Below, piece after piece: positions 3,583 to 60,233 of a DNA stretch of 64,000 nucleotides. Made by a program: the position numbers and the translations under genes. The notes beneath the pieces were generated by a model that was not told where the DNA came from, did no database searches, and saw nothing but the letters and a program-made list of their open reading frames with translations. The stretch comes from Candidatus Omnitrophota bacterium. Its GTDB lineage: Bacteria; Omnitrophota; Gorgyraeia; Velamenicoccales; JABMQK01. Location of the stretch: the NCBI GenBank assembly GCA_028711115.1, contig JAQTSV010000001.1, positions 1,304,928 to 1,368,927 of the forward strand, given 5' to 3'. Position 1 is the stretch's first letter. Every line of letters starts with the position of its first letter.

Positions 3583-3661
3583 TGGTCGGGGAGGTGGGAT
3601 TTGAACCCACGGCCTCAACGTCCCGAACGTTGCGCGCTAAACCAAACTGCGCTACTCCCCG
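3583..3661 (-). tRNA. tRNA-Pro (anticodon CGG), CCA encoded
   Basis: The reverse complement CGGGGAGTAGCGCAG...CAACGTTCGGGACGTTG...GTGGGTTCAAATCCCACCTCCCCGACCA folds as a cloverleaf. The anticodon loop is TTCGGGA. Confidence 0.9.
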
Positions 3662-8467: not shown

Positions 8468-8632
8468 CTTTCTGCCCTCTCCCATCTAGACTTTTCGCCA
8501 AGTAAACTTAGCGACTCCGTTTTTCACGGAGACTATTGGCCCAAGAATTACACTTGGTCAATCCGCCGTTACAACTTTGGCGGACTCGTAGGCTTTCACT
8601 ACCAGTCAGGAATCACACCTGATCCCGAAGGT
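8468..8632 (-). promoter_or_regulatory. FMN riboswitch (RFN element) aptamer
   Basis: The minus strand reads CUUCGGGAUCAGGUGUGAUUCCUGACUGGUAGU...AGCCUACGAGUC...GGAUUGACCAAGUGUAAUUCUUGGGCCAAUAGU...AGUCUAGAUGGGAGAGG. This matches the conserved RFN core blocks and lies upstream of ribBA. Confidence 0.9.
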
Positions 8633-8660
8633 TATTTTAATTTATACCAAAAGATTATAT

Positions 8661-29618: not shown

Positions 29619-29742
29619 TGGCGCCGAATTACATTAATTCGGCATCCGCCATTGAATTTATTAATGAAATTCTTAAGGTTACGGCGCTGGGCTACGCTAG
29701 CCCAGCATCCGTTAAAACTTTCATTAATGAAAGTTTTAACGG
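29619..29742 (-). repeat. tRNA-trailer hairpin array R1 (four REP-like hairpins, 3' of tRNA-Ser GCT)
   Basis: Four hairpins are present. (1) GCGCCGAATTA-CAT-TAATTCGGCATCCGC. (2) A degenerate CCGCCATTGAATT..AATGAAATTC unit. (3) GCTGGGCTA-CGC-TAGCCCAGC. (4) CCGTTAAAACTTTCATTAATGAAAGTTTTAACGG, which overlaps the tRNA 3' end. Confidence 0.8.
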
Positions 29743-29828: not shown

Positions 29829-29850
29829 AAAATTTACTGAGTGATTTTTG

Positions 29851-29890
29851 GATCTCGAGTCCCGCCACTTATCTTGGCGGACGAAAGATC
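29851..29890 (-). repeat. Solo CCGCCA/TGGCGG hairpin between tadA and tRNA-Ser(GCT)
   Basis: GTCCCGCCA-CTTATCT-TGGCGGAC (29859-29882) nested in a GATCT...AGATC outer stem. The stem family is the same as hairpin B of the tRNA 5' cassettes. Confidence 0.7.
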
Positions 29891-29901
29891 TTAAACGCGA
29901 A

Positions 29902-30820: not shown

Positions 30821-30885
30821 AATTGCAGAGAGTAAATTAGCATACTTTAGTGATTAAAACAAGGAAGAAAACAAAAAAAGCAATA

Positions 30886-30970
30886 ACTGCGCTAGGCTAC
30901 ATTAGCCCAGTATCCGAACGGTCCCGAAACACATTGTTTCGGCATCCGTCATTAATTTTATTTTTGAATG
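30886..30970 (-). repeat. Orphan tRNA-trailer hairpin array R2 (no adjacent tRNA)
   Basis: GCGCTAGGCTA-CAT-TAGCCCAGTATCCG, then CCCGAAACA-CAT-TGTTTCGGCATCCG, then a decayed TCATTAAT unit. The module order matches R3, but no tRNA follows. Confidence 0.75.
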
Positions 30971-31402: not shown

Positions 31403-32851
31403 TTACTCGGGAATTTTTAAAGTAATAATTACCTTAGTTCCTTTTTTCACCTGGCTTTTTACCTCAATTAGCCCTTTGTGCATAATAATAATATTTCGGC
31501 TTACAGATAACCCCAGCCCAGTCCCTTTGCCTGGTTCTTTTGTGGTAAAGAAAGGATCGAATATCCTTTTAAGGTTTTCTTCAGAAATACCCATGCCTGT
31601 ATCCTCAATTTCAATAACAACGACATTCTCTCCAGCCTTAAAAGAATCATCTGGCCTTCCATCTATGCCTTTTCTTGTTTCTTCCAGTTGCTTAACAAAG
31701 CTGCGAATAGTAAGTTTTCCTGACTCAGGCATTGCATGTATTGCATTCATAAACAGATTAATAAATACCTGCGTTAGTTTATTTTTATCTACTAAAACCT
31801 TTGGCAGATCTTTTTGAATTTCCTTGACTACCTTGATATTCTTTAATTCTGTTTTTATCAAATTCAAAGAATTCTCAATAATAGGGTCAATATATTCTGG
31901 GTGCAATTCAAGCTTCGTAGCTCTAGAAAAATCTAGAAGCGAGATTACAATCTTGTCTGCCCTTTGCGCGTTCTCCTTAACTATAGATAAAGCCTCATGC
32001 GGCTCTTTTGCCTCCGGAGATATTATTTGCTCCAAATAAGCAACTCCCTGCATTATGGTTCCTAGAGGATTCCTCATCTCATGGGCTACGCTGCTTGCCA
32101 ATTGACCGATGGCCTTGAGCTTCTCCGATTGAATTAACTTATCTTGCATCTCCTTTAATTCATCGTAGGCTATTTTTAATTCTACTGCCCTCTTAGAAAC
32201 CTCCTCGTAAAGTCGGGCGTTCTGCAGAGCAATCGCACCCATACGGCCAATATTCATAGCTACTGAGACTTCTCGCTGCGTGAAAGTCCCGGGTGTTTTT
32301 TTATCGCATATGTGCAATACGCCTAGAACTTCATCCTTGTATATAAGCGGAACACTGATAAATGCTTTTTGCAAAAAATACTCTTCTTTTTTTAACTTGC
32401 TCAAATAATAATCCTGCGCCAAATCGGACACCACTAATTTTTCTCTGTTACGCATCACAAGTCCAGATATGCTATCTTTACCTATGATCAAAGGTCCCTT
32501 GTTGCGATCGTAATACCACCCGATTGCGCAGGCCAACGTAAACTTTTCTGTACTTTTATTCCAAGCAAGAAACACAGTGCGCTCAATCGGCAAGAAATTA
32601 TTAGCAGCCTCGGTAATACACTGCGCTACACCTTGAAGACTAAAAGCCGAAACCAGCTTCTCATTGAACTTAAACAGAAAATCTAATTCTGCCTCATACC
32701 ACATTTTATCTTCTAAATATGACGGAACCTGCGGCGGGAATTTGTGAAACGGATCCCGTGGAAATTTTTTAAGAAGAGACTTCTTCCGTTGATACACAAT
32801 GGCTATCGCGTAAACAAACACGAAACCAATCAAAGTAAATACAATAATCAT
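31403..32851 (-). CDS. Sensor histidine kinase with an N-terminal TM helix and a GAF domain
   Basis: H-box SSVAHEMRNPLGTI, N-box NLFMNAIHAM, G1 DTGMGI and G2 GTGLGLSV. A GAF-like region precedes DHp. Confidence 0.9.
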   Translation of the reverse strand: MIIVFTLIGFVFVYAIAIVYQRKKSLLKKFPRDPFHKFPPQVPSYLEDKMWYEAELDFLFKFNEKLVSAFSLQGVAQCITEAANNFLPIERTVFLAWNKSTEKFTLACAIGWYYDRNKGPLIIGKDSISGLVMRNREKLVVSDLAQDYYLSKLKKEEYFLQKAFISVPLIYKDEVLGVLHICDKKTPGTFTQREVSVAMNIGRMGAIALQNARLYEEVSKRAVELKIAYDELKEMQDKLIQSEKLKAIGQLASSVAHEMRNPLGTIMQGVAYLEQIISPEAKEPHEALSIVKENAQRADKIVISLLDFSRATKLELHPEYIDPIIENSLNLIKTELKNIKVVKEIQKDLPKVLVDKNKLTQVFINLFMNAIHAMPESGKLTIRSFVKQLEETRKGIDGRPDDSFKAGENVVVIEIEDTGMGISEENLKRIFDPFFTTKEPGKGTGLGLSVSRNIIIMHKGLIEVKSQVKKGTKVIITLKIPE

Positions 32852-32863
32852 AAGAATAAGATT

Positions 32864-32958
32864 AACGGCGCTGGGCTACATTAGCCCGGCATCCGAACGG
32901 CGCCGAAACACATTGTTTCGGCATCCGTTAAGTTTTTCATTAATGAAAAACTTAACGG
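32864..32958 (-). repeat. tRNA-trailer hairpin array R3 (3' of tRNA-Ser GGA)
   Basis: The minus strand reads CCGTTAAGTTTTTCATTAATGAAAAACTTAACGG, then ATGCCGAAACA-ATG-TGTTTCGGCGCCG, then TTCGGATGCCGGGCTA-ATG-TAGCCCAGCGCCG. It ends 12 nt before the kinase ATG. Confidence 0.8.
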
Positions 32959-33042
32959 AGAGGCAGGGATTCGAACCCTGGGTAGCCTTACGACTACACA
33001 TGCTCTCCAGGCATGCCGATTAAACCGCTCTCGCACCTCTCC
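32956..33042 (-). tRNA. tRNA-Ser (anticodon GGA), no encoded CCA
   Basis: GGAGAGGTGCGAGAGCGGTTTAATCGGCATGCCTGGAGAGCATG..., a long variable arm, then GGGTTCGAATCCCTGCCTCTCCG. Confidence 0.9.
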
Positions 33043-33137
33043 AAAAATTCAATTACACAGAACAACCGACCGCCATTAAAGATTCGGCGGTCGTCCGCCA
33101 ACTTATTAGTGGCGGACGCTCTCGCACCTCTCCAAAA
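33026..33137 (-). repeat. tRNA 5' cassette E1: a 70-nt two-hairpin element flanked by a 21-nt direct duplication of the tRNA-Ser(GGA) 5' end
   Basis: 33026-33046 and 33117-33137 are both cgctctcgcacctctccaaaa, which is tRNA positions +17 to -4. The interior 33047-33116 carries the hairpins GACCGCC..GGCGGTC and GTCCGCCA..TGGCGGAC. Confidence 0.85.
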
Positions 33138-33179
33138 TTTCTCGCTCTTACTAATCAAAAACAAAGAACAATTTATATG

Positions 33180-34541
33180 TCAATCTCCCAAAAGATGTTC
33201 TTTGGTCAGATTTAATTTATTCAAAGCCGCCTCTCTATCTCTGTGATAAAGACGGCAGAAACTGGAAACGTCGTCTATCTTATTCATTTCTTTTTCTTTC
33301 AATATCTTTAGCAGCTTGACTCTGATTTTAAACTCGTCTATAAAATTCTTGGCCGGAAAACCTCCCAGCTTACAAACCTTATCCCTGAACACACTGCTGG
33401 GCTGGCGCTCTATAAAATTTTCTTTCTCGCAGTTGTAGCTCCATACCGGCGAAAGCAAAACCACTTTCTGTTCCAAGCCGGCTGTCTCGGCTATTTCATC
33501 GACAACTCTGAAAAAACTATTTCTTATCTGATACTTCTTGACAGTAACGAATACGTCTATCAAATTAACCAGTGTCTCGGGTATGTTCATCGGCTCATTC
33601 TGAAGACGAATGATGGCCTCTCTGGCTGAATTAGCATGAATCGTACCCATACAATATTTTCCGATATTCATAGCTGTCATCATATCCTGGGCCTCACTGC
33701 CTCTTACCTCTCCCACAATAATGCGCTCCGGACGCATCCTTAAACTATTCTTCACTAAATCTGCCAGGGTGATACCTTCGTCGCATTCTAATCTTGACCA
33801 GCTATCTTCCAATTTTGTATTGAGTTCCAATGTGTCTTCGATTACAACCAGCCGTTCATTATCGGGGATAAAACTAATAAGAGCATTCATCAGCGTGGTC
33901 TTTCCGGAACCAGGCGCACCCAATATCAACATATTTGCAGGCCTGACGCCCATTCCTTCCACATACAACCACAGCTGCGCTGCTAACTCATAAGATAAAG
34001 ACCTAAAGTTCACCAAATCAATTATGCTCAGCGGGCTCTCTTTTATTTTTGTAATGGTAATCTGCGGACCAAACGGAGACTGCACAATATTCACCCTGCC
34101 TGATATATTGGGCAGCTCTAAATTATTGACCATCTTAACGTGTTTGCGCCCGGAGAAAACCAATAATTTCTTCACAAAAACATCGAGCTCTTTCTGCGTA
34201 TTGAATTTTTTATCTGTTTTCACCAATCCGCGGTATGTATGATGGACATAAATAGGATTAAGTGCATTTATAATAATATCTTCCGTGTTGGGATCGACTA
34301 AAAGTTCATCCACAGTGCCAAAGGAAAAAAATTCCTTTAAAAAACTTTTTCTGCCTTCGTCTGTATTCAATTCACTTACGGTCTTACCTTGAAAGAAATT
34401 ATCTTTGGTAGTATTACCGTAAGTATCGGCGAGAACATTTATGACAATATTATCTTTTTCTTCCTGGGTCTGCATTATATTAATTTTGCCAAATAACTGT
34501 TCAAGAACTTTGGCCTGAATATCCAATTGGAATTTATTCAT
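33180..34541 (-). CDS. Type II/IV secretion-family ATPase (FlaI/TadA/VirB11-like), orphan
   Basis: Walker A GAPGSGKTT, VIEDTLEL, GEVRGSEA and GTIHANS (His box). The N-terminal domain has the LVDPNTEDIIIN motif typical of FlaI/TadA-type ATPases. Confidence 0.85.
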   Translation of the reverse strand: MNKFQLDIQAKVLEQLFGKINIMQTQEEKDNIVINVLADTYGNTTKDNFFQGKTVSELNTDEGRKSFLKEFFSFGTVDELLVDPNTEDIIINALNPIYVHHTYRGLVKTDKKFNTQKELDVFVKKLLVFSGRKHVKMVNNLELPNISGRVNIVQSPFGPQITITKIKESPLSIIDLVNFRSLSYELAAQLWLYVEGMGVRPANMLILGAPGSGKTTLMNALISFIPDNERLVVIEDTLELNTKLEDSWSRLECDEGITLADLVKNSLRMRPERIIVGEVRGSEAQDMMTAMNIGKYCMGTIHANSAREAIIRLQNEPMNIPETLVNLIDVFVTVKKYQIRNSFFRVVDEIAETAGLEQKVVLLSPVWSYNCEKENFIERQPSSVFRDKVCKLGGFPAKNFIDEFKIRVKLLKILKEKEMNKIDDVSSFCRLYHRDREAALNKLNLTKEHLLGD

Positions 34542-34583
34542 AAACTCTCCTTTTGTATTATTCTGAAATTGTTAAACTGATCA

Positions 34584-34646
34584 GCGGATGCCGAATTACA
34601 TTAATTCGGCATCCGCCATTGAATTCATTAATGAATTCAATGGCGG
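34584..34646 (-). repeat. tRNA-trailer hairpin array R4 (3' of tRNA-Ser CGA)
   Basis: GCGGATGCCGAATT-ACATT-AATTCGGCATCCGC (34584-34616) overlaps the perfect 34-nt palindrome CCGCCATTGAATTCATTAATGAATTCAATGGCGG (34613-34646) by 4 nt. The palindrome includes the tRNA CCGCCA 3' end. Confidence 0.85.
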
Positions 34647-34728
34647 AAGGAGCAGGATTCGAACCTGCGAGGCCTTGCGACCTGGACGCTTTCGAGGCGT
34701 CTGGATTCAACCGCTCTCCCATCCTTCC
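34641..34728 (-). tRNA. tRNA-Ser (anticodon CGA), CCA encoded
   Basis: GGAAGGATGGGAGAGCGGTTGAATCCAGACGCCTCGAAAGCGTC..., a long variable arm, then GGTTCGAATCCTGCTCCTTCCGCCA. Confidence 0.9.
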
Positions 34729-34748
34729 CTAATAAATATATATAATTC

Positions 34749-34838
34749 TGGCGGAGGCGGAAGGATTCGAACCCTCGGTGAACTTACGCCCACAACGGTT
34801 TTCAAGACCGCCGCATTCAACCGCTCTGCCACGCCTCC
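34749..34838 (-). tRNA. tRNA-Ser (anticodon TGA), CCA encoded
   Basis: GGAGGCGTGGCAGAGCGGTTGAATGCGGCGGTCTTGAAAACCGT..., a long variable arm, then GGGTTCGAATCCTTCCGCCTCCGCCA. Confidence 0.9.
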
Positions 34839-34931
34839 AATAATTCAATTTTACAGAACAACCGACCGCCATTAAAAATTCGGCGGTCGTCCGCCAACTT
34901 ATTAGTGGCGGACGCTCTGCCACGCCTCCAA
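34822..34931 (-). repeat. tRNA 5' cassette E2: a 72-nt two-hairpin element flanked by a 19-nt direct duplication of the tRNA-Ser(TGA) 5' end
   Basis: 34822-34840 and 34913-34931 are both cgctctgccacgcctccaa. The interior matches E1 at 67 of 70 positions. Confidence 0.85.
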
Positions 34932-34937
34932 AATTTC

Positions 34938-35612
34938 TTATTTCATAACAAACAGCTGCTTAAAAATAGCTGTATGGGTATCGATAAAGAATTTACCGCC
35001 GCTTTTAATAATATTTACAAAAGAAAAATCCTTTAGCATTACATTAAAGAAAACAGAAATTAAGACAATCTCAAACATATAAACTAAAAACAGCGTAAAG
35101 AAATAATTTCCTTTCAGGGTGTCTGTGGTCTCCTCCTTCATATAGGCCGCAGTTAAAATCAAATGCATTACAGCAGTAAAAGAAATCCAAAATATAAAAT
35201 ATCCGATAATAACTTCATAGGCGAAATTTGCCTTAAAAATAAAATAGAGACCAAAAGTTAATACTGTGTAGAACGGTACGGCACAGGATAATAAATCCCT
35301 GAGAGGCGCGATAAAACCAAACATGCCACTGATAAGCCTCTGGCCAAATTTATAAATGGTATTCGGCTCATAAATAAACATATGCAGAATTAAATAGGCG
35401 GCTATGGCTAAGACAAAATTATTTATAATATCCTGGCTTTGGTTGGAAAATTCCTGTGAGAAACTGACCGTCAAACCCCAGACTAACGGCAATAATAAAA
35501 TACTTAAGGTGAATTTAACTACTGATATTACCGTCTCAAATAAACTCCCCCTGGCCCTGCCTCCGGAACCGCTATTAATTTCTAACCCTTCATCCAATTC
35601 TTGTTTTGCCAT
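34938..35612 (-). CDS. Hypothetical polytopic membrane protein (224 aa)
   Basis: About 6 TM helices. It overlaps the serS 3' end by 23 nt. No recognised family. Confidence 0.5.
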   Translation of the reverse strand: MAKQELDEGLEINSGSGGRARGSLFETVISVVKFTLSILLLPLVWGLTVSFSQEFSNQSQDIINNFVLAIAAYLILHMFIYEPNTIYKFGQRLISGMFGFIAPLRDLLSCAVPFYTVLTFGLYFIFKANFAYEVIIGYFIFWISFTAVMHLILTAAYMKEETTDTLKGNYFFTLFLVYMFEIVLISVFFNVMLKDFSFVNIIKSGGKFFIDTHTAIFKQLFVMK

Positions 35613-36858
35613 CGAAATACCCCCTTAAAACTTCCGGTATCTGAATTGTTCCGTCTTTATCCTGATAATTTTCGATTATGGCAATGACCGTGCGCGCAAG
35701 CGCAACGCCCGAGCCATTCAACGTGTGCACATAATTTAATTTTTTTGTATCTTTCGTTCTGTAGCGGATATTCGCCCGCCTTGCCTGAAAATCGCAGAAG
35801 TTCGAACAGCTGGAAACTTCCAGCCACTTGTCCAGCCCCGGCGCGTATGCCTCCAAATCATAGCATTTGCTCGCCGAGAAACTCAAATCTCCCGTAGAAA
35901 GCATATTCACACGGTAAGGCAGATTCAATAATTGTAAAACTTCCTCCGCGTTAGCCACCAATTTTTCCAATTCATCATAGGAAGTCTCGGGCTTTACAAA
36001 TTTAACCATTTCCACTTTATCGAACTGATGCACGCGCATAAGGCCTTTTGTGTCTTTTCCGTAAGAGCCCGCTTCCCGCCTAAAACACGGCGTATAAGCG
36101 GTGTAATAAACCGGAAGATTTTCTTCTTCCAATACGTCGTCGCGGTGAATATTGGTAACCGGAACTTCCGCCGTGGGAATCAAGAATAAATCGTCATCTT
36201 TTAATTTATACATATCCTCTTCTAATTTAGGCAATTGACCGGTACCAGTCATACTCTGACGGTTAACCAAAGCAGGCGCCCAGATTTCCCTGTATCCGTG
36301 TTTTTTGGTGTGCAAATCCAGCATAAAATCAATCAATGCGCGTTGGAGTTTGGCGCCGTCGCCTTTAAAAATGACAAAATTCGAACCGGTTATCTTTGCC
36401 GCGCGCGGCAAATCCATAATATCTAAATGCTCGCAAATTTCCATATGAGATTTGGGCTTAAAATCAAATTCGCGGGCTTTTCCCCAGCTGCGCACAATTT
36501 TATTCGCCGTGGCATCGCCGACAGGAATACTTTCATGCGGAATATTTGGTATATTTAACAAAATTTTATCAAGTTCTGTATCGATTTCTTTTTCGCCTTT
36601 TTCCAATTCGTCGATTTCTTCGGCGATGCTCTTCATTTCTTTTATTTTTTTCTTGGGATCTTTTTTTGCTTTTAGAAGCGCGGTAATTTCGTCATTGGCT
36701 AAATTTTTCTGCCTTCTTAATTCTTCAAGTTTTAGCAAAATTTCCCTGCGCTTTCTGTCGAGCGATGTGAATCCACCTAAATCCAATTTTATCCCACGGT
36801 TTTTTATTGCGGCTTTTACTAAATCAAAATTTTCTCTTATAAATTTTATGTCTAACAT
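35590..36858 (-). CDS. serS: Seryl-tRNA synthetase
   Basis: An N-terminal coiled-coil tRNA-binding arm and a class II catalytic core (motif 2 region FRREAGSYGKDTKGLMRVHQFDKVE). Confidence 0.97.
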   Translation of the reverse strand: MLDIKFIRENFDLVKAAIKNRGIKLDLGGFTSLDRKRREILLKLEELRRQKNLANDEITALLKAKKDPKKKIKEMKSIAEEIDELEKGEKEIDTELDKILLNIPNIPHESIPVGDATANKIVRSWGKAREFDFKPKSHMEICEHLDIMDLPRAAKITGSNFVIFKGDGAKLQRALIDFMLDLHTKKHGYREIWAPALVNRQSMTGTGQLPKLEEDMYKLKDDDLFLIPTAEVPVTNIHRDDVLEEENLPVYYTAYTPCFRREAGSYGKDTKGLMRVHQFDKVEMVKFVKPETSYDELEKLVANAEEVLQLLNLPYRVNMLSTGDLSFSASKCYDLEAYAPGLDKWLEVSSCSNFCDFQARRANIRYRTKDTKKLNYVHTLNGSGVALARTVIAIIENYQDKDGTIQIPEVLRGYFDGKTRIG

Positions 36859-36872
36859 AAATTATTCCTTTC

Positions 36873-38330
36873 CTAGCCTTTTATCACTCCGAGCGGCCTC
36901 ATCTTGCAGACCTTCCTGGAAATTCCGGCGCGCTCAACCACATTTACCACATCATTTATATTCTTGTAAGCAGCAGGCGCTTCTTCTACAAGCGTTTCCC
37001 TGCTTGAGGCTTTAACTGTTATTCCTTTTGATTCTAATTCCTCTAATAAACTTATGGCGTTAAACGACCTTGTGGCTGCGGAACGCGATTTTAATCTGCC
37101 TGCGCCATGGCATGTGGAATAAAAAGTTTCTTTTGCCTTCTCTGTTCCGACAAGTAAATATGAATTCCTTCCCATATCTCCGGGAATTATTACCGGCTGT
37201 CCGTAATTTTTATATTTTTCTGGCAAAGCCGGATGATTCGGGCCCAGCGCCCTGGTCGCGCCTTTTCTATGAACGCAAACTTTCTTTTTCTTTCCGTTTA
37301 CTTCACAAGTCTCAATTTTGGCAATGTTATGGGCTACGTCATAAACCAAAGACATCCCCATATTCTGCCAGGATTTGTTAAACACGCGCTCAAAAGCCAG
37401 GCGCGTCAAATGCATAAGGCACTGGCGGTTTGCCCAGGCGTAATTTGCCGCCGCGCGCATGGCAGAAAGATACTCTTTTCCTTCTTCTGATTCTACAGGA
37501 GCGCAAGCCAATTGTCTATCAGGAACATTAATATTGTATTTGGATAAACAATGAATCATCTTCTTTACGTAATCCTCGCAAACCTGATAACCCAAGCCGC
37601 GCGAACCTGAGTGAATCATTACAGTAATCTGTCCTTCTGCCACGCCGAAAACATTCGCTGTTTCTTTATCGTAAATTTCTTCTACAACCTGGACTTCTAA
37701 AAAATGATTTCCCGAACCCAAAGTGCCGGATTGCGCCTTGCCGCGCTCATACGCCCTGTCTGAAACAGCGTCCGTAGCCGCGCCGCTGATTGCGCCTTCT
37801 TCTTCGCAATAAGTCAAATCATCCTGCGTGCCATAACCTTGCTCCACTGCCCAACGCGCGCCTTTTATTAAGATTTCTTTCTCTTCTCTTGCAGAAACTT
37901 TTATGTCGCCTTTGGAACCTAATCCCGAAGGAACATCATTAAATAAAACATAAACCAAATCTTTTATCTTATTTTTTATTTCGCTAAATAAAAGGTTCGT
38001 GCGCACCAAACGCACGCCGCAATTTATGTCAAAACCAACCCCGCCGGGAGAAATCACACCATTGTTTTCAATGTCTGTCGCCGCCACGCCGCCGATGGGA
38101 AAACCATATCCCCAGTGTATGTCCGGCATGGCCAAAGAATTAGAAACAATCCCCGGAAGAAACGCGACATTGGCAACCTGCTCCGCGGCTTTGTCGTGGC
38201 GAATATCAGCCAGGAGTTTTTCGTCGGCGTAAATTACGCCGTCGGTGCGCATGCCCGGTTTATAACTTTTTGGTATACGCCACCTGACATCATCTATTCT
38301 TTCCAACGGGCCTTGCCAAAGATCTGCCAT
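36873..38330 (-). CDS. rtcB: RNA-splicing ligase RtcB
   Basis: Conserved GVGFDINCGVR, GSGNHF, HSGSRGLG and HGAGR motifs; 485 aa. Confidence 0.95.
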   Translation of the reverse strand: MADLWQGPLERIDDVRWRIPKSYKPGMRTDGVIYADEKLLADIRHDKAAEQVANVAFLPGIVSNSLAMPDIHWGYGFPIGGVAATDIENNGVISPGGVGFDINCGVRLVRTNLLFSEIKNKIKDLVYVLFNDVPSGLGSKGDIKVSAREEKEILIKGARWAVEQGYGTQDDLTYCEEEGAISGAATDAVSDRAYERGKAQSGTLGSGNHFLEVQVVEEIYDKETANVFGVAEGQITVMIHSGSRGLGYQVCEDYVKKMIHCLSKYNINVPDRQLACAPVESEEGKEYLSAMRAAANYAWANRQCLMHLTRLAFERVFNKSWQNMGMSLVYDVAHNIAKIETCEVNGKKKKVCVHRKGATRALGPNHPALPEKYKNYGQPVIIPGDMGRNSYLLVGTEKAKETFYSTCHGAGRLKSRSAATRSFNAISLLEELESKGITVKASSRETLVEEAPAAYKNINDVVNVVERAGISRKVCKMRPLGVIKG

Positions 38331-38767: not shown

Positions 38768-38840
38768 TGGGCCATGTAGGAGTCGAACCTACGACCTTGA
38801 CATTAAGAGTGTCCTGCTCTACCGATTGAGCTAATGGCCC
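38768..38840 (-). tRNA. tRNA-Lys (anticodon CTT), no encoded CCA
   Basis: GGGCCATTAGCTCAATCGGTAGAGCAGGACACTCTTAATGTCAAGGTCGTAGGTTCGACTCCTACATGGCCCA. Confidence 0.9.
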
Positions 38841-38912
38841 GATTTTTATCTATACGCCATAAGCGAATCCGCCGATGTTTAGTGGCGGAGAGCTAATGAC
38901 ACGGAATTTTTA
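38828..38912 (-). repeat. tRNA 5' cassette E3 (decayed): a single CCGCC hairpin flanked by a diverged duplication of the tRNA-Lys 5' end
   Basis: Proximal gagctaatggcccgattttta (38828-38848) compared with distal gagctaatgacacggaattttta (38890-38912). The interior holds TCCGCC-ACTAAACATC-GGCGGA. Confidence 0.7.
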
Positions 38913-59291: not shown

Positions 59292-60233
59292 TTATCCGCC
59301 TTTGGCGGATAAAACTTTTTTTGCGGCAATAACTATGTCTGAGCCGGTCAAATTGTACTCTTTTAGCAATTCGGCAGGGCTGCCTGATTGTCCAAATCTA
59401 TTTCTTATACCTACGCGTATCACCTTGGTAGGTATATTTTCGCATACAACTTCATCAATCGCAGAGGCAAGGCCGCCCACGACTGTGTGCTCCTCGCAAA
59501 CAACCAAACCTTTTGTCTCTTTGACACATTTTATAATCATCTCTTCATCTAAAGGCCTTAAGGTATGCATATTGATTACTCTTGCGGATATGCCTTCTTT
59601 TTTTAATATTTCTTCTGCTTTGATGGCCTGCTCTACCATTATACCGCAGGCAAAAATAGAAACATCATTGCCTTCTTTGATTACGCAGGATTTTCCTAAT
59701 TTAAAAGGCTTTTTCTCCTCGATGGTAGGTACTTTTGCCCTGCTTAATCTGATATAAAAAGGACCAGGCGTGTTCAAAGCAGCAATAACTGCGTCTTTTG
59801 TTTCAGGGCCATCACACGGAACAATGATTTTCATATTGGGGATACTGCGCATCAAAGCAATATCTTCAATTGCCTGATGGCTGGCCCCATCTTCACCCAC
59901 GCTAACGCCTGCATGCGTCGCCACGAGCTTAACATTAAAATTATTATAACAAACGGAATTGCGCAGCTGATCCCATGCCCGGCCAGTAGCAAACATAGCA
60001 AAAGTAGAAGCAAAAACTACTTTACCGCAGCTTGCCAGACCAGCAGCCGTTGCCATCATATTTTGTTCAGCCACGCCAAAATTAAAAAATCTCTCCGGAT
60101 AGGCCTTGCCAAAAAGTTTTGTCTTGGTGGAACTCGATAAATCTGCGTCCAAGACAATTATGTTCTGATGGTCTTTGCCTAATTCTACCAGAGTTTTTCC
60201 GTATACTTCCCGTTGATAAAGTGCTTCTGCCAA
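59292..60233 (-). CDS. Transketolase, C-terminal (pyrimidine-binding) subunit
   Basis: Split-type transketolase B subunit; the conserved GVAEQNM and EDGASHQ motifs. Confidence 0.92.
   Translation of the reverse strand: MAEALYQREVYGKTLVELGKDHQNIIVLDADLSSSTKTKLFGKAYPERFFNFGVAEQNMMATAAGLASCGKVVFASTFAMFATGRAWDQLRNSVCYNNFNVKLVATHAGVSVGEDGASHQAIEDIALMRSIPNMKIIVPCDGPETKDAVIAALNTPGPFYIRLSRAKVPTIEEKKPFKLGKSCVIKEGNDVSIFACGIMVEQAIKAEEILKKEGISARVINMHTLRPLDEEMIIKCVKETKGLVVCEEHTVVGGLASAIDEVVCENIPTKVIRVGIRNRFGQSGSPAELLKEYNLTGSDIVIAAKKVLSAKGG

Follow-up and report, generated by a model that had tools for sequence, protein, structure and literature searches.

Why does a dead tRNA 5' end stand in front of an intact tRNA gene, with a short cassette of hairpins between the two? 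The question is raised by two serine tRNA genes in a 64,000-nucleotide stretch of a Candidatus Omnitrophota genome (the window, with coordinates counted from its first letter). At tRNA-Ser(TGA), and again at tRNA-Ser(GGA), a 72-nt insert is flanked by direct repeats that carry the first 17 positions of the adjoining tRNA. We read both cassettes, with about as much doubt as conviction, as a form lacking the open reading frame (ORF) of a selfish element that invades tRNA genes and consists of a GIY-YIG nuclease gene and hairpins; the distal block would be the displaced original 5' end of the tRNA. Nuclease-driven selfish elements at tRNA genes are a known kind, and this family is apparently undescribed: a literature search turned up no account of GIY-YIG elements in bacterial chromosomes that duplicate a tRNA 5' end.

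Two serine tRNA cassettes and their hairpin family

The 19-mer CGCTCTGCCACGCCTCCAA is present at tRNA-Ser(TGA) as an exact direct repeat (34822-34840 and 34913-34931) that admits no extension in either direction; read in the sense of the tRNA, it is TT followed by tRNA positions 1-17. This locus-specific duplication had been described, with the right coordinates, in a first-pass annotation of the sequence. Along the minus strand, on which all parts of both cassettes lie, the locus begins with aaatt TT-GGAGGCGTGGCAGAGCG, continues through TCCGCCA-ctaataagt-TGGCGGA, CGACCGCC-gaatttttaat-GGCGGTCG and gttgttctgtaaaattgaattatt, and ends in GGAGGCGTGGCAGAGCG-GTTGAATGCGG..., the complete tRNA-Ser(TGA) (34838-34749). 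The distal partial copy (34913..34931), delimited by the exact 19-nt repeat and by empty sites in two relatives (L019 and L027), comprises tRNA positions 1-17 (34913-34929) and two upstream T. It is followed by hairpin 1 (34890..34912; TCCGCCA-CTAATAAGT-TGGCGGA), which is oriented forward relative to the tRNA and is recovered by covariance model R1 (E=2.4e-9), by hairpin 2 (34863..34889; CGACCGCC-GAATTTTTAAT-GGCGGTCG), a reverse member of the hairpin-1 family that R1 matches on the plus strand (E=6e-9), and by a 24-nt AT-rich spacer (34839..34862; GTTGTTCTGTAAAATTGAATTATT; predicted fold z about -3.9). The complete, functional copy of the tRNA (34749..34838) lies 91 nt downstream of the ancestral start. 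The 72-nt interior (34841-34912) starts with TCCGCCACTAAT and ends with TTGAATTATT.

E1, the sister cassette at tRNA-Ser(GGA), has a 19-mer repeat at 33026-33044 and 33117-33135 that is extendable to 21 nt (33026-33046 and 33117-33137). Its distal partial tRNA-Ser(GGA), defined by repeat analysis, holds positions 1-17 and 2-4 upstream T (33117..33137). The hairpin doublet, placed by alignment and R1 (33067..33116; hairpin 1 at 33094-33116, hairpin 2 at 33067-33093), shows a single difference from that of the TGA locus, in the loop of hairpin 2; the spacer (33043..33066) carries an AA-to-GT change relative to the TGA locus that lengthens a predicted outer stem, and the complete tRNA-Ser(GGA) follows at 32955..33042.

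The two interiors, both 72 nt long, have four differences (68/72 identical), essentially equal to the 67 of 70 counted earlier. The duplicated tRNA blocks of the two loci differ at 4 of 17 positions, as had also been stated for the tRNA 5' ends, and the tRNA bodies are identical at 60/87 positions, or 47/70 from position 18 on. The claim that the cassette is better conserved than its host tRNAs thus stands (68/72 against 60/87). The window has exactly two copies of a 35-nt cassette core, and 100 shuffles gave none. The sequence is real and no assembly artefact, since an independent assembly (GCA_028716625.1, L034) matches the window at 100% identity across 13.4 kb that include both cassettes, and a short Logan contig (L035) has the E1 distal block and breaks within hairpin 1, so that the repeat acts as a repeat in assembly.

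Apart from the 24-nt AT-rich spacer, the interior consists of two members of one hairpin family, xxxCCGCCA-N9-TGGCGGxxx, set as an inverted doublet. Alignment of 19 copies from nine loci gave the consensus xxxCCGCCA-YTRNNNCNT-TGGCGGxxx with a polar 9-nt loop. Compensatory substitutions, whose presence had been left to be checked by the first-pass annotation, are found: the three outer pairs covary across the family (UA/AU/CG), both sides having changed in 18 cells where shuffles give 6.2. The five inner pairs do not vary, yet these same pairs were the criterion by which the copies were selected. At every locus the hairpin beside the tRNA fragment is forward and the last hairpin is reverse, so that the module is the inverted doublet itself; because such a doublet looks unchanged when flipped, the loci make no case for insertion in either orientation.

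The family keeps to tRNA genes. A simple pattern search of the window placed six of seven CCGCC...GGCGG hairpins 27-53 nt upstream of tRNAs, with 0.04 expected by chance. R1, which was built from the hairpin family, returned the four cassette hairpins at E about 1e-9, a hairpin upstream of tRNA-Lys at E 0.007, and weaker matches in the trailer of tRNA-Ser(CGA) and the leader of tRNA-Ser(GCT). All family hairpins with the 9-nt loop, in the window and in related loci, are within tRNA-derived sequence; an occurrence mainly away from tRNAs, which would have spoken against the earlier reading of the cassette, was thus not observed. At 59292-59312, TCCGCC-ttt-GGCGGA stands between two minus-strand ORFs with a T-run on the plus strand; it has the family stem, a 3-nt loop and the look of an ordinary terminator, and is the sole family-like hairpin that does not adjoin a tRNA. 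One helix of an FMN riboswitch (RF00050, 72.8 bits; 8470-8636, minus strand) is a chance match to R1.

Nuclease-bearing elements and empty sites at tRNA genes

Genome and metagenome collections were scanned with the exact 22-base pattern TCCGCCAN{7,11}TGGCGGACGACCGCC, which returned mostly high-GC chance matches and two true relatives, L007 and L016; the exactness of the pattern keeps this census small. In both relatives, which are distant Omnitrophota, the exact junction TGGCGGACGACCGCC recurs at tRNA-Pro. L007 runs from CGGGGCGTGGCTCAGCT (17 nt of tRNA-Pro-TGG) through two hairpins, an 83-aa ORF and 11 nt to a complete tRNA-Pro(TGG) with the same 17-19 nt start, and its ORF is a GIY-YIG nuclease (PF01541, E 3e-17). 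L016 has a GIY-YIG ORF directly upstream of tRNA-Pro(CGG); the contig ends within the ORF, and the distal part falls outside it. Further ORF-bearing elements adjoin tRNA-Pro(TGG) (L023, L026), tRNA-Pro(CGG) (L025), tRNA-Pro(GGG) (L036) and tRNA-His(GTG) (L032/L033), and L041, the sole locus from the IMG/VR scan, is a more distant, degenerate variant. A doublet within a partial 5' tRNA copy, followed by a GIY-YIG ORF of ~80 aa and then by the complete tRNA, is the general architecture of every recovered locus outside the window. An encoded GIY-YIG nuclease, a trait of free-standing homing elements, is found in L007, L016, L023, L025, L026, L032 and L036 and is absent from the window cassettes.

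The GIY-YIG ORFs match PF01541 at E about 1e-16 to 1e-17 and share invariant Y4, Y15, R25, H29 and E61. GCA_028716625.1 encodes one of these proteins (P0160, locus L033), arranged as in L032; since L033 and L034 belong to this same assembly and L034 is identical to the window, the genome of the window has an ORF-bearing element at tRNA-His. The subfamily has more than 5,000 database relatives, many of them on very short contigs, and no homologue in 50,697 phage records or 72,556 plasmids. Gene callers start the ORFs too far upstream, so that they take in the hairpins and the fragment of the tRNA (L036 2501-2827 and L025 4001-4282, called as 108 and 93 aa instead of about 80), and database GIY-YIG proteins therefore often have a spurious N-terminus of translated tRNA and hairpin DNA. 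An insert of another kind in L007 (3712-4437) splits the anticodon loop of tRNA-Arg(TCT) (...ACTGCCTTC, then ~650 nt, then TAAGCAGT...) and encodes a 154-aa PD-(D/E)XK endonuclease (PF11645, E 2e-29); it looks like a group I intron, has no Rfam intron match at the gathering threshold, and its tRNA is not called by ARAGORN.

At the ORF-bearing elements, as at the serine loci, the duplicated block follows its own tRNA: GGGGCG..GCTCAGCT in L007, GGGGAG..G(C/T)TCAG in L023, GGGGAG..AGCGCAG in L025 and L026, and 27 nt of tRNA-His in L032. The expectation that the duplication tracks the adjacent tRNA thus held in six other elements (these and L036), in which the block is identical to its tRNA or has one mismatch and the tRNAs differ mutually. 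In a tRNA scan of the loci, partial 5' copies scoring 13-15/15 were found only at element sites and adjacent paralogous tRNA-Ser genes; the ORF-bearing loci scored 15/15 or 14/15, reverse-strand controls reached at most 10/15, and the few higher downstream scores (12-14/15) came from adjacent paralogous or similar tRNA genes. The duplication measures 19 and 21 nt in the window, 19-20 nt in L007, L023, L025 and L026, 27+11 nt in L032, about 6 nt in L041, and about 95 nt in L036, where about 60 nt of structured leader are added to 27+7 nt of tRNA. Its tRNA part ranges from about 6 to about 34 nt and begins in every case at tRNA +1 (within 3 nt); a length so variable does not fit a fixed staggered cut with target-site duplication.

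The doublet is not at the end of these elements. In L032, tRNA-His positions 1-27 are followed by the hairpins and by CTTGACTATGG (positions 28-38, one mismatch), which runs into the ORF start; in L036, tRNA positions 1-27, the hairpins and CTTGAGT precede the ATG; and in L023 the hairpins are followed by GCTTAGA, compared with GCTAGAG in the tRNA. Because tRNA sequence resumes past the hairpins, the doublet is set within the dead fragment of the tRNA, either at G18/G19 or at hinge 26/27. In L007, L023 and L036, remnants of tRNA 3' parts are found 95-190 nt past the complete tRNA. In L025 (4372-4640) the complete tRNA-Pro(CGG) is followed by two extra units, made of AGCTCAGTTTG (tRNA positions 9-19), 2-3 hairpins and positions 20-77; they lack positions 1-8, and one has compensatory T-stem changes (GTGGG/CCCAC to GCTGG/CCAGT). 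Together, the remnants and the extra units suggest that a whole copy was placed between the two parts of a resident gene that had been split. L016 has a second tRNA-Pro copy that is similarly interrupted (1060-1240).

An extended -10 (TGTTATAAT or close variants) lies 5' of the distal fragment in L007, L023 and L026 and, at the empty site of L032, 5' of the tRNA itself, which places the ORF between the tRNA promoter and the tRNA. The first-pass suggestion that the cassette itself might supply a promoter gained no support from a consensus scan, which detected no sigma-70-like site in either window cassette on the strand of the tRNA.

Empty sites were provided by syntenic relatives of the serine loci, found via CpaF homologues. 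In L019 (81% aa identity), tRNA-Ser(TGA), one base off that of the window, starts 6 nt after the stop of the upstream ORF, and tRNA-Ser(GGA) starts 10 nt after the cpaF stop, both without a cassette; tRNA-Ser(TGA) is cassette-free in L027 (85%), as are both genes in L031. The distal 17-nt block of the window lies 9 nt past the stop of a 224-aa ORF, just as the tRNA does in the relatives, and thus occupies the ancestral tRNA start, in agreement with the earlier proposal that the distal copy holds the ancestral upstream context. The flank shared with tRNA-Ser(GCT), on which that proposal drew, is present: AAATTTT stands 5' of both distal copies and of tRNA-Ser(GCT). The latter gene had been taken for cassette-free, which is not strictly so; a related leader hairpin, TCCGCCAagataagTGGCGGGA (29860..29884, minus strand), stands 33 nt upstream of it within an outer stem (GATCTTTCG / CTCGAGATC), of the leader type found in L028 and L029 and with no tRNA duplication. 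Since recombination between the two 19-nt copies would recreate an empty site, empty sites alone do not separate insertion from precise deletion.

Occupancy varies at other tRNAs, too. In a conserved block of YhdP, tRNA-Pro(TGG), tRNA-Arg, DUF748 and tRNA-His, L032 has the Pro site empty and the His site occupied, and L023 has the Pro site occupied and the His site empty; tRNA-Pro(CGG) of the window (3583-3661), which precedes an acylphosphatase gene, corresponds to the L025 locus without its element. Conserved targets in otherwise syntenic genomes are thus polymorphic for presence or absence of the element, at the Ser sites and in the Pro/His swap, a trait of free-standing homing endonuclease elements. 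Older or nested fragments, with 3-5 mismatches to the adjacent tRNA and with other hairpins, are present at tRNA-Ser(GGA) in L022 and L027 and at tRNA-Ser(TGA) in L029, which argues that the process recurs at tRNA-Ser genes and that the fragments decay. The nested arrays of L022 (1605-2012) and L027 (1882-2168) hold 3-5 partial tRNA-Ser 5' ends (GGAGAG..., GGAGAGGTGCCGGAGCGG..., GGAGAGGTGCGAGAGTGGTTTCAATA...) between cpaF and tRNA-Ser(GGA), each followed by different GC hairpins and none matching the adjacent tRNA exactly. Assemblies L020 and L021 show breaks or runs of N in the interval between cpaF and tRNA-Ser(GGA).

Proposed mechanism and competing explanations

A full element runs from the original tRNA promoter and its upstream context through a partial 5' tRNA copy, with the doublet embedded at D-loop G18/G19 or at the 26/27 hinge, a GIY-YIG ORF of ~80 aa and an AT-rich leader of ~12-25 nt to the complete tRNA; the serine cassettes have all of these parts but the ORF. 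By analogy with phage SegB, the GIY-YIG nuclease would break tRNA genes. Recombinational repair from an element-bearing template, or a microhomology-mediated partial tandem duplication of the tRNA, would install the element between the promoter and a regenerated tRNA, and the displaced tRNA 5' end would remain as a dead fragment. The element would be expressed from the tRNA's own promoter, with RNase P releasing the downstream tRNA. The serine interiors may have become near-identical by gene conversion, or the ORF-less unit may have been copied between loci 1.8 kb apart; the flanking 17-nt blocks would stay locus-specific because the proximal block must pair with the 3' strand of its own acceptor. 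The order of events may also be the reverse, the ORF-less hairpin cassette being primary and the GIY-YIG genes secondary invaders.

Several points weigh against deriving the serine cassettes from a nuclease-bearing element. No ORF-bearing element was found at any tRNA-Ser gene, and tblastn detected no GIY-YIG ORF or pseudogene remnants in the window or at the serine loci of relatives. The GIY-YIG loci, found via homology to one protein, were not sampled at random. If a break were simply repaired from the paralogous serine locus, the donor 5' block would be imported into the functional tRNA, which is not seen, so that an extra step has to be assumed, either prior occupancy of both loci with gene conversion of the interior, or an insertion that itself made the duplication. 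The regenerated tRNA should in turn be cut by a homing nuclease aimed at the tRNA gene. The 24-nt spacer resembles the stop-codon and leader 3' ends of GIY-YIG elements, in AAxTGAAT 4-8 nt before +1, and this likeness is weak (p 0.007-0.04, uncorrected).

A transposon resembling a miniature inverted-repeat transposable element (MITE) would dispense with the nuclease: the non-autonomous 72-nt unit would insert at D-loop 17/18 with a staggered cut of ~19 nt, and gap repair would duplicate the target. MITEs are small ORF-less repeated units flanked by direct target repeats, and the cassette is likewise small, ORF-less, repeated and flanked by direct target repeats; its exact, locus-specific repeats of 19 and 21 nt around near-identical interiors and the empty sites in relatives are what such a transposon would leave, and this is the simplest route to identical distal and proximal blocks at two paralogous tRNAs. 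We nevertheless consider it improbable. The cassette ends have no terminal inverted repeats (the interior starts with TCCGCCA and ends with GAATTATT, and the inverted repeats are the internal hairpins), no transposase is linked to the cassette, and a duplication of 17-21 nt here grows to about 95 nt with the leader in a relative, always from tRNA +1, while the tRNA sequence that resumes in L023, L032 and L036 puts the hairpins inside the duplicated segment. The first-pass annotation had argued for two independent insertion-type events or concerted spread rather than chance; chance is excluded by the shuffles (0/100) and the empty sites agree with that argument, but a transposon-like target-site duplication is not upheld, its length not being fixed.

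We think it similarly doubtful that the cassette is primarily a functional tRNA leader RNA, kept by selection, whose three-way junction insulates or terminates upstream transcription, protects the upstream mRNA 3' end after RNase P cleavage, or guides tRNA processing, although the idea is compatible with a mobile origin. Both cassettes are predicted to fold stably as a three-way junction (-37.1 and -34.6 kcal/mol, z about -3.9 and -3.8, with much the same fold as DNA), with an outer stem in which GCAGAGC of the distal fragment pairs with GUUCUGU of the spacer and encloses the two hairpins. Two of the four cassette differences (AA to GT) lengthen this predicted stem with the E1-specific fragment, which with n=2 copies is anecdotal and too little for covariation. 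Other tRNA-Ser genes of the clade have a conserved leader of ~60 nt with a stem-loop, seen before three different tRNA-Ser genes at as many loci; its outer stem covaries between genomes (GATCTC/GAGATC, GATCCT/AGGATC, GACTTC/GAAGTC; L028, L029 and window GCT). This leader consists of AGATCTCTCG, a GC hairpin, CTCGAGATCC and AAAATTTACTGCGTAAATTT before the tRNA (29830-29900 in the window, minus strand); it stands 5' of tRNA-Ser TGA, GGA and GCT in L028 and of TGA and GCT in L029, with no tRNA duplication. In the cassettes, the 3' arm of hairpin 1 can also pair with the 5' arm of hairpin 2 (TTGGCGG-ACGA-CCGCCGA), followed by AUUUUUAAU, which is terminator-like, but two tandem hairpins of the same family give this pairing automatically, and an attenuator with 1:2, 2:3 and 3:4 pairings was rejected as a consequence of the same tandem arrangement. 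The close relatives L019 and L027 function without the cassette. Rfam returned only tRNAs at the gathering threshold, with noise only at E up to 10 over 32800-35100 and no T-box, and the tRNA strand showed no sigma-70-like promoter in either cassette. A leader function would also leave the presence of the same doublet before nuclease ORFs at Pro and His tRNAs unexplained.

Least credible to us is a local rearrangement with neither mobile element nor nuclease, in which replication slippage or unequal exchange duplicated leader and tRNA 5' end at each locus and gene conversion between the two loci then evened out the interior: the window loci are close and in the same orientation, and L029 (leader, 16-nt degenerate tRNA fragment, leader, tRNA) and the nested arrays of tRNA-Ser 5' fragments in L022 and L027 look like tandem duplication products, but the doublet recurs with the exact junction TGGCGGACGACCGCC at tRNA-Pro in distant Omnitrophota (L007, L016) and accompanies GIY-YIG ORFs at tRNAs of four other species, the distal fragments of the window have no upstream leader copy, and the hairpins inside the tRNA fragment stay unexplained.

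Readings of the cassette as part of a tRNA were rejected. An internally deleted tRNA (the 5' 17 nt fused to the 3' end TCCGCCA and trailer) is contradicted by the same hairpin at Pro and His tRNAs with different 3' ends, and the similarity between the interior and the rest of the tRNA is not significant (p > 0.1). A split or intron-containing tRNA joined by the neighbouring RtcB and archease fails because an intact tRNA follows every cassette, and an archaeal-type tRNA intron because that tRNA is complete and uninterrupted and the interrupted copies in L016 and L025 have no normal 5' end.

Genomic setting and relation to known selfish elements

The serine loci, 1.8 kb apart and in the same orientation, belong to a minus-strand series that runs archease/rtcB, serS, the 224-aa ORF, cassette and tRNA-Ser(TGA), tRNA-Ser(CGA), cpaF, cassette and tRNA-Ser(GGA), histidine kinase, response regulator, tRNA-Arg, tadA, tRNA-Ser(GCT) and dnaX. 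The CpaF-like ATPase encoded between both cassettes assigns the source to Candidatus Omnitrophota. The cluster of archease, rtcB, serS, a small membrane ORF, tRNA-Ser(TGA) and tRNA-Ser(CGA) is conserved (window 36873-38330 and 35590-36858; L019, L029, L031, L034); serS of the archease-rtcB-serS cluster has no T-box leader, and rtcB of L029 bears an intein (995 aa, PF14890).

Cassette-free tRNA-Ser(CGA) (34641..34728, minus strand) lies 20 nt downstream of tRNA-Ser(TGA), and its 3' end TCCGCCA pairs with a downstream TGGCGGA to form a long trailer hairpin. Similar 3' trailer modules are repeated after tRNA-Ser genes (29623-29731, 32852-32947, 34568-34647), with a further copy near 30873-30968. 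In every module, a long AT-rich hairpin looped by CATTAATGA draws on the tRNA's own 3' end for its GC clamp (TCCGCCA...TGGCGGA or TCCGTTAA...TTAACGGA), and the GC hairpin GATGCCGAATTAATGTAATTCGGCATC comes next; short motifs such as CCGTTAA recur between units, and the same modules are present in L019, L022, L028 and L029. Upstream of tRNA-Lys(CTT) (38768-38840), a single hairpin TCCGCCActaaacatcGGCGGA, 27 nt from the tRNA, and a degenerate 5' fragment gtgtcATTAGCTC (38868..38902, minus strand; R1 E=0.007) are probably an older relic of the cassette kind. The fragment matches the tRNA-Lys 5' end at 11/13 positions, a match that is not significant by itself (10/15), and tRNA-Lys has no such hairpin in relatives L019 and L031.

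Among known systems, SegB, a free-standing GIY-YIG homing endonuclease encoded in the tRNA cluster of T-even phages, cuts inside tRNA genes (PMC2330249; PMC13096335). Through its action a segment of tRNA plus nuclease gene is copied and amplified in tandem, in a recombination-dependent way and with microhomology at a tRNA 5' end (PMC13096335; PMC2330249), and phage segB homologues are statistically associated with tRNA genes (PMC2330249; PMC13096335). A GIY-YIG gene adjoins tRNA genes in both cases. However, the present elements are chromosomal and bacterial (Omnitrophota), their nuclease is a minimal catalytic domain of ~80 aa without the DNA-binding part of SegB, and they are placed within the transcription unit of the tRNA, after a dead 5' fragment with a specific hairpin doublet, the window cassettes being ORF-less. 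In fungal mitochondria, free-standing homing endonuclease ORFs insert in a host gene and leave a partial duplicate, as in Allomyces atp6. Here, too, a nuclease gene has entered a conserved host gene, the displaced segment is duplicated so that function is kept, and the ancestral context retains a dead fragment; the mitochondrial cases, however, concern protein-coding organellar genes with 3' (C-terminal) duplications and have no hairpin doublet, in contrast to the 5' duplication of a tRNA gene on a bacterial chromosome.

The doublets themselves recall the REP/REPIN-RAYT system in their short GC-rich palindromes with a conserved core and polar loop, in their inverted arrangement, and in flanking a single small nuclease gene; palindromes as inverted doublets (forward plus reverse, polar 9-nt loop) are present at every locus. 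REPINs number tens to hundreds per genome and are generally intergenic, and RAYT is a Y1-HUH transposase. The present hairpins, in contrast, are few and confined to tRNA-derived sequence, and the linked gene is GIY-YIG, not a Y1-HUH RAYT; many dispersed copies were not found in the 64 kb, which hold four strong matches and one weaker one, all upstream of tRNAs (RAYT was not searched genome-wide). Islands that integrate at tRNA genes use the tRNA 3' part, are kilobases long and encode an integrase. They share with the present elements the direct repeats from a tRNA segment around an insert and the regenerated tRNA, but here the 5' part is duplicated and the insert measures 72-330 nt; in the window cassettes neither an integrase gene nor att repeats from the tRNA 3' part were found, the repeat being the tRNA 5' end and the insert 72 nt without an ORF.

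Beyond the serine loci, we advance tentatively, as a possibility that we would not call probable, that Omnitrophota, and possibly other phyla with close homologues of the ~80-aa protein, harbor an undescribed class of tRNA-gene parasites made of a minimal GIY-YIG nuclease and a REPIN-like doublet, which enter at the hinges G18/G19 and 26/27, duplicate the tRNA 5' part and ride the tRNA promoter; the serine cassettes would be non-autonomous miniatures, mobilized or maintained in trans by the nuclease at tRNA-His of their own genome. The tRNA genes are classic landing sites for mobile DNA, nearly always at their 3' ends and via integrases. Here a nuclease-plus-hairpin unit is found in the 5' part of the transcription unit, and its scar is a dead 5' fragment interrupted by a CCGCCA-N9-TGGCGG doublet; for annotation, such tRNA 5' fragments of 17-30 nt are scars and not genes. 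If our reading is true, GIY-YIG 'homing without an intron' would extend from phages and organelles to bacterial chromosomes, and a part of the very large unannotated family of ~80-aa GIY-YIG proteins (>5,000 database hits) would gain a role. It would also account for recurrent assembly breaks and for odd pseudo-tRNA fragments near tRNA genes in metagenome-assembled genomes, and it would provide a natural system in which nuclease-induced breaks make partial gene duplications.

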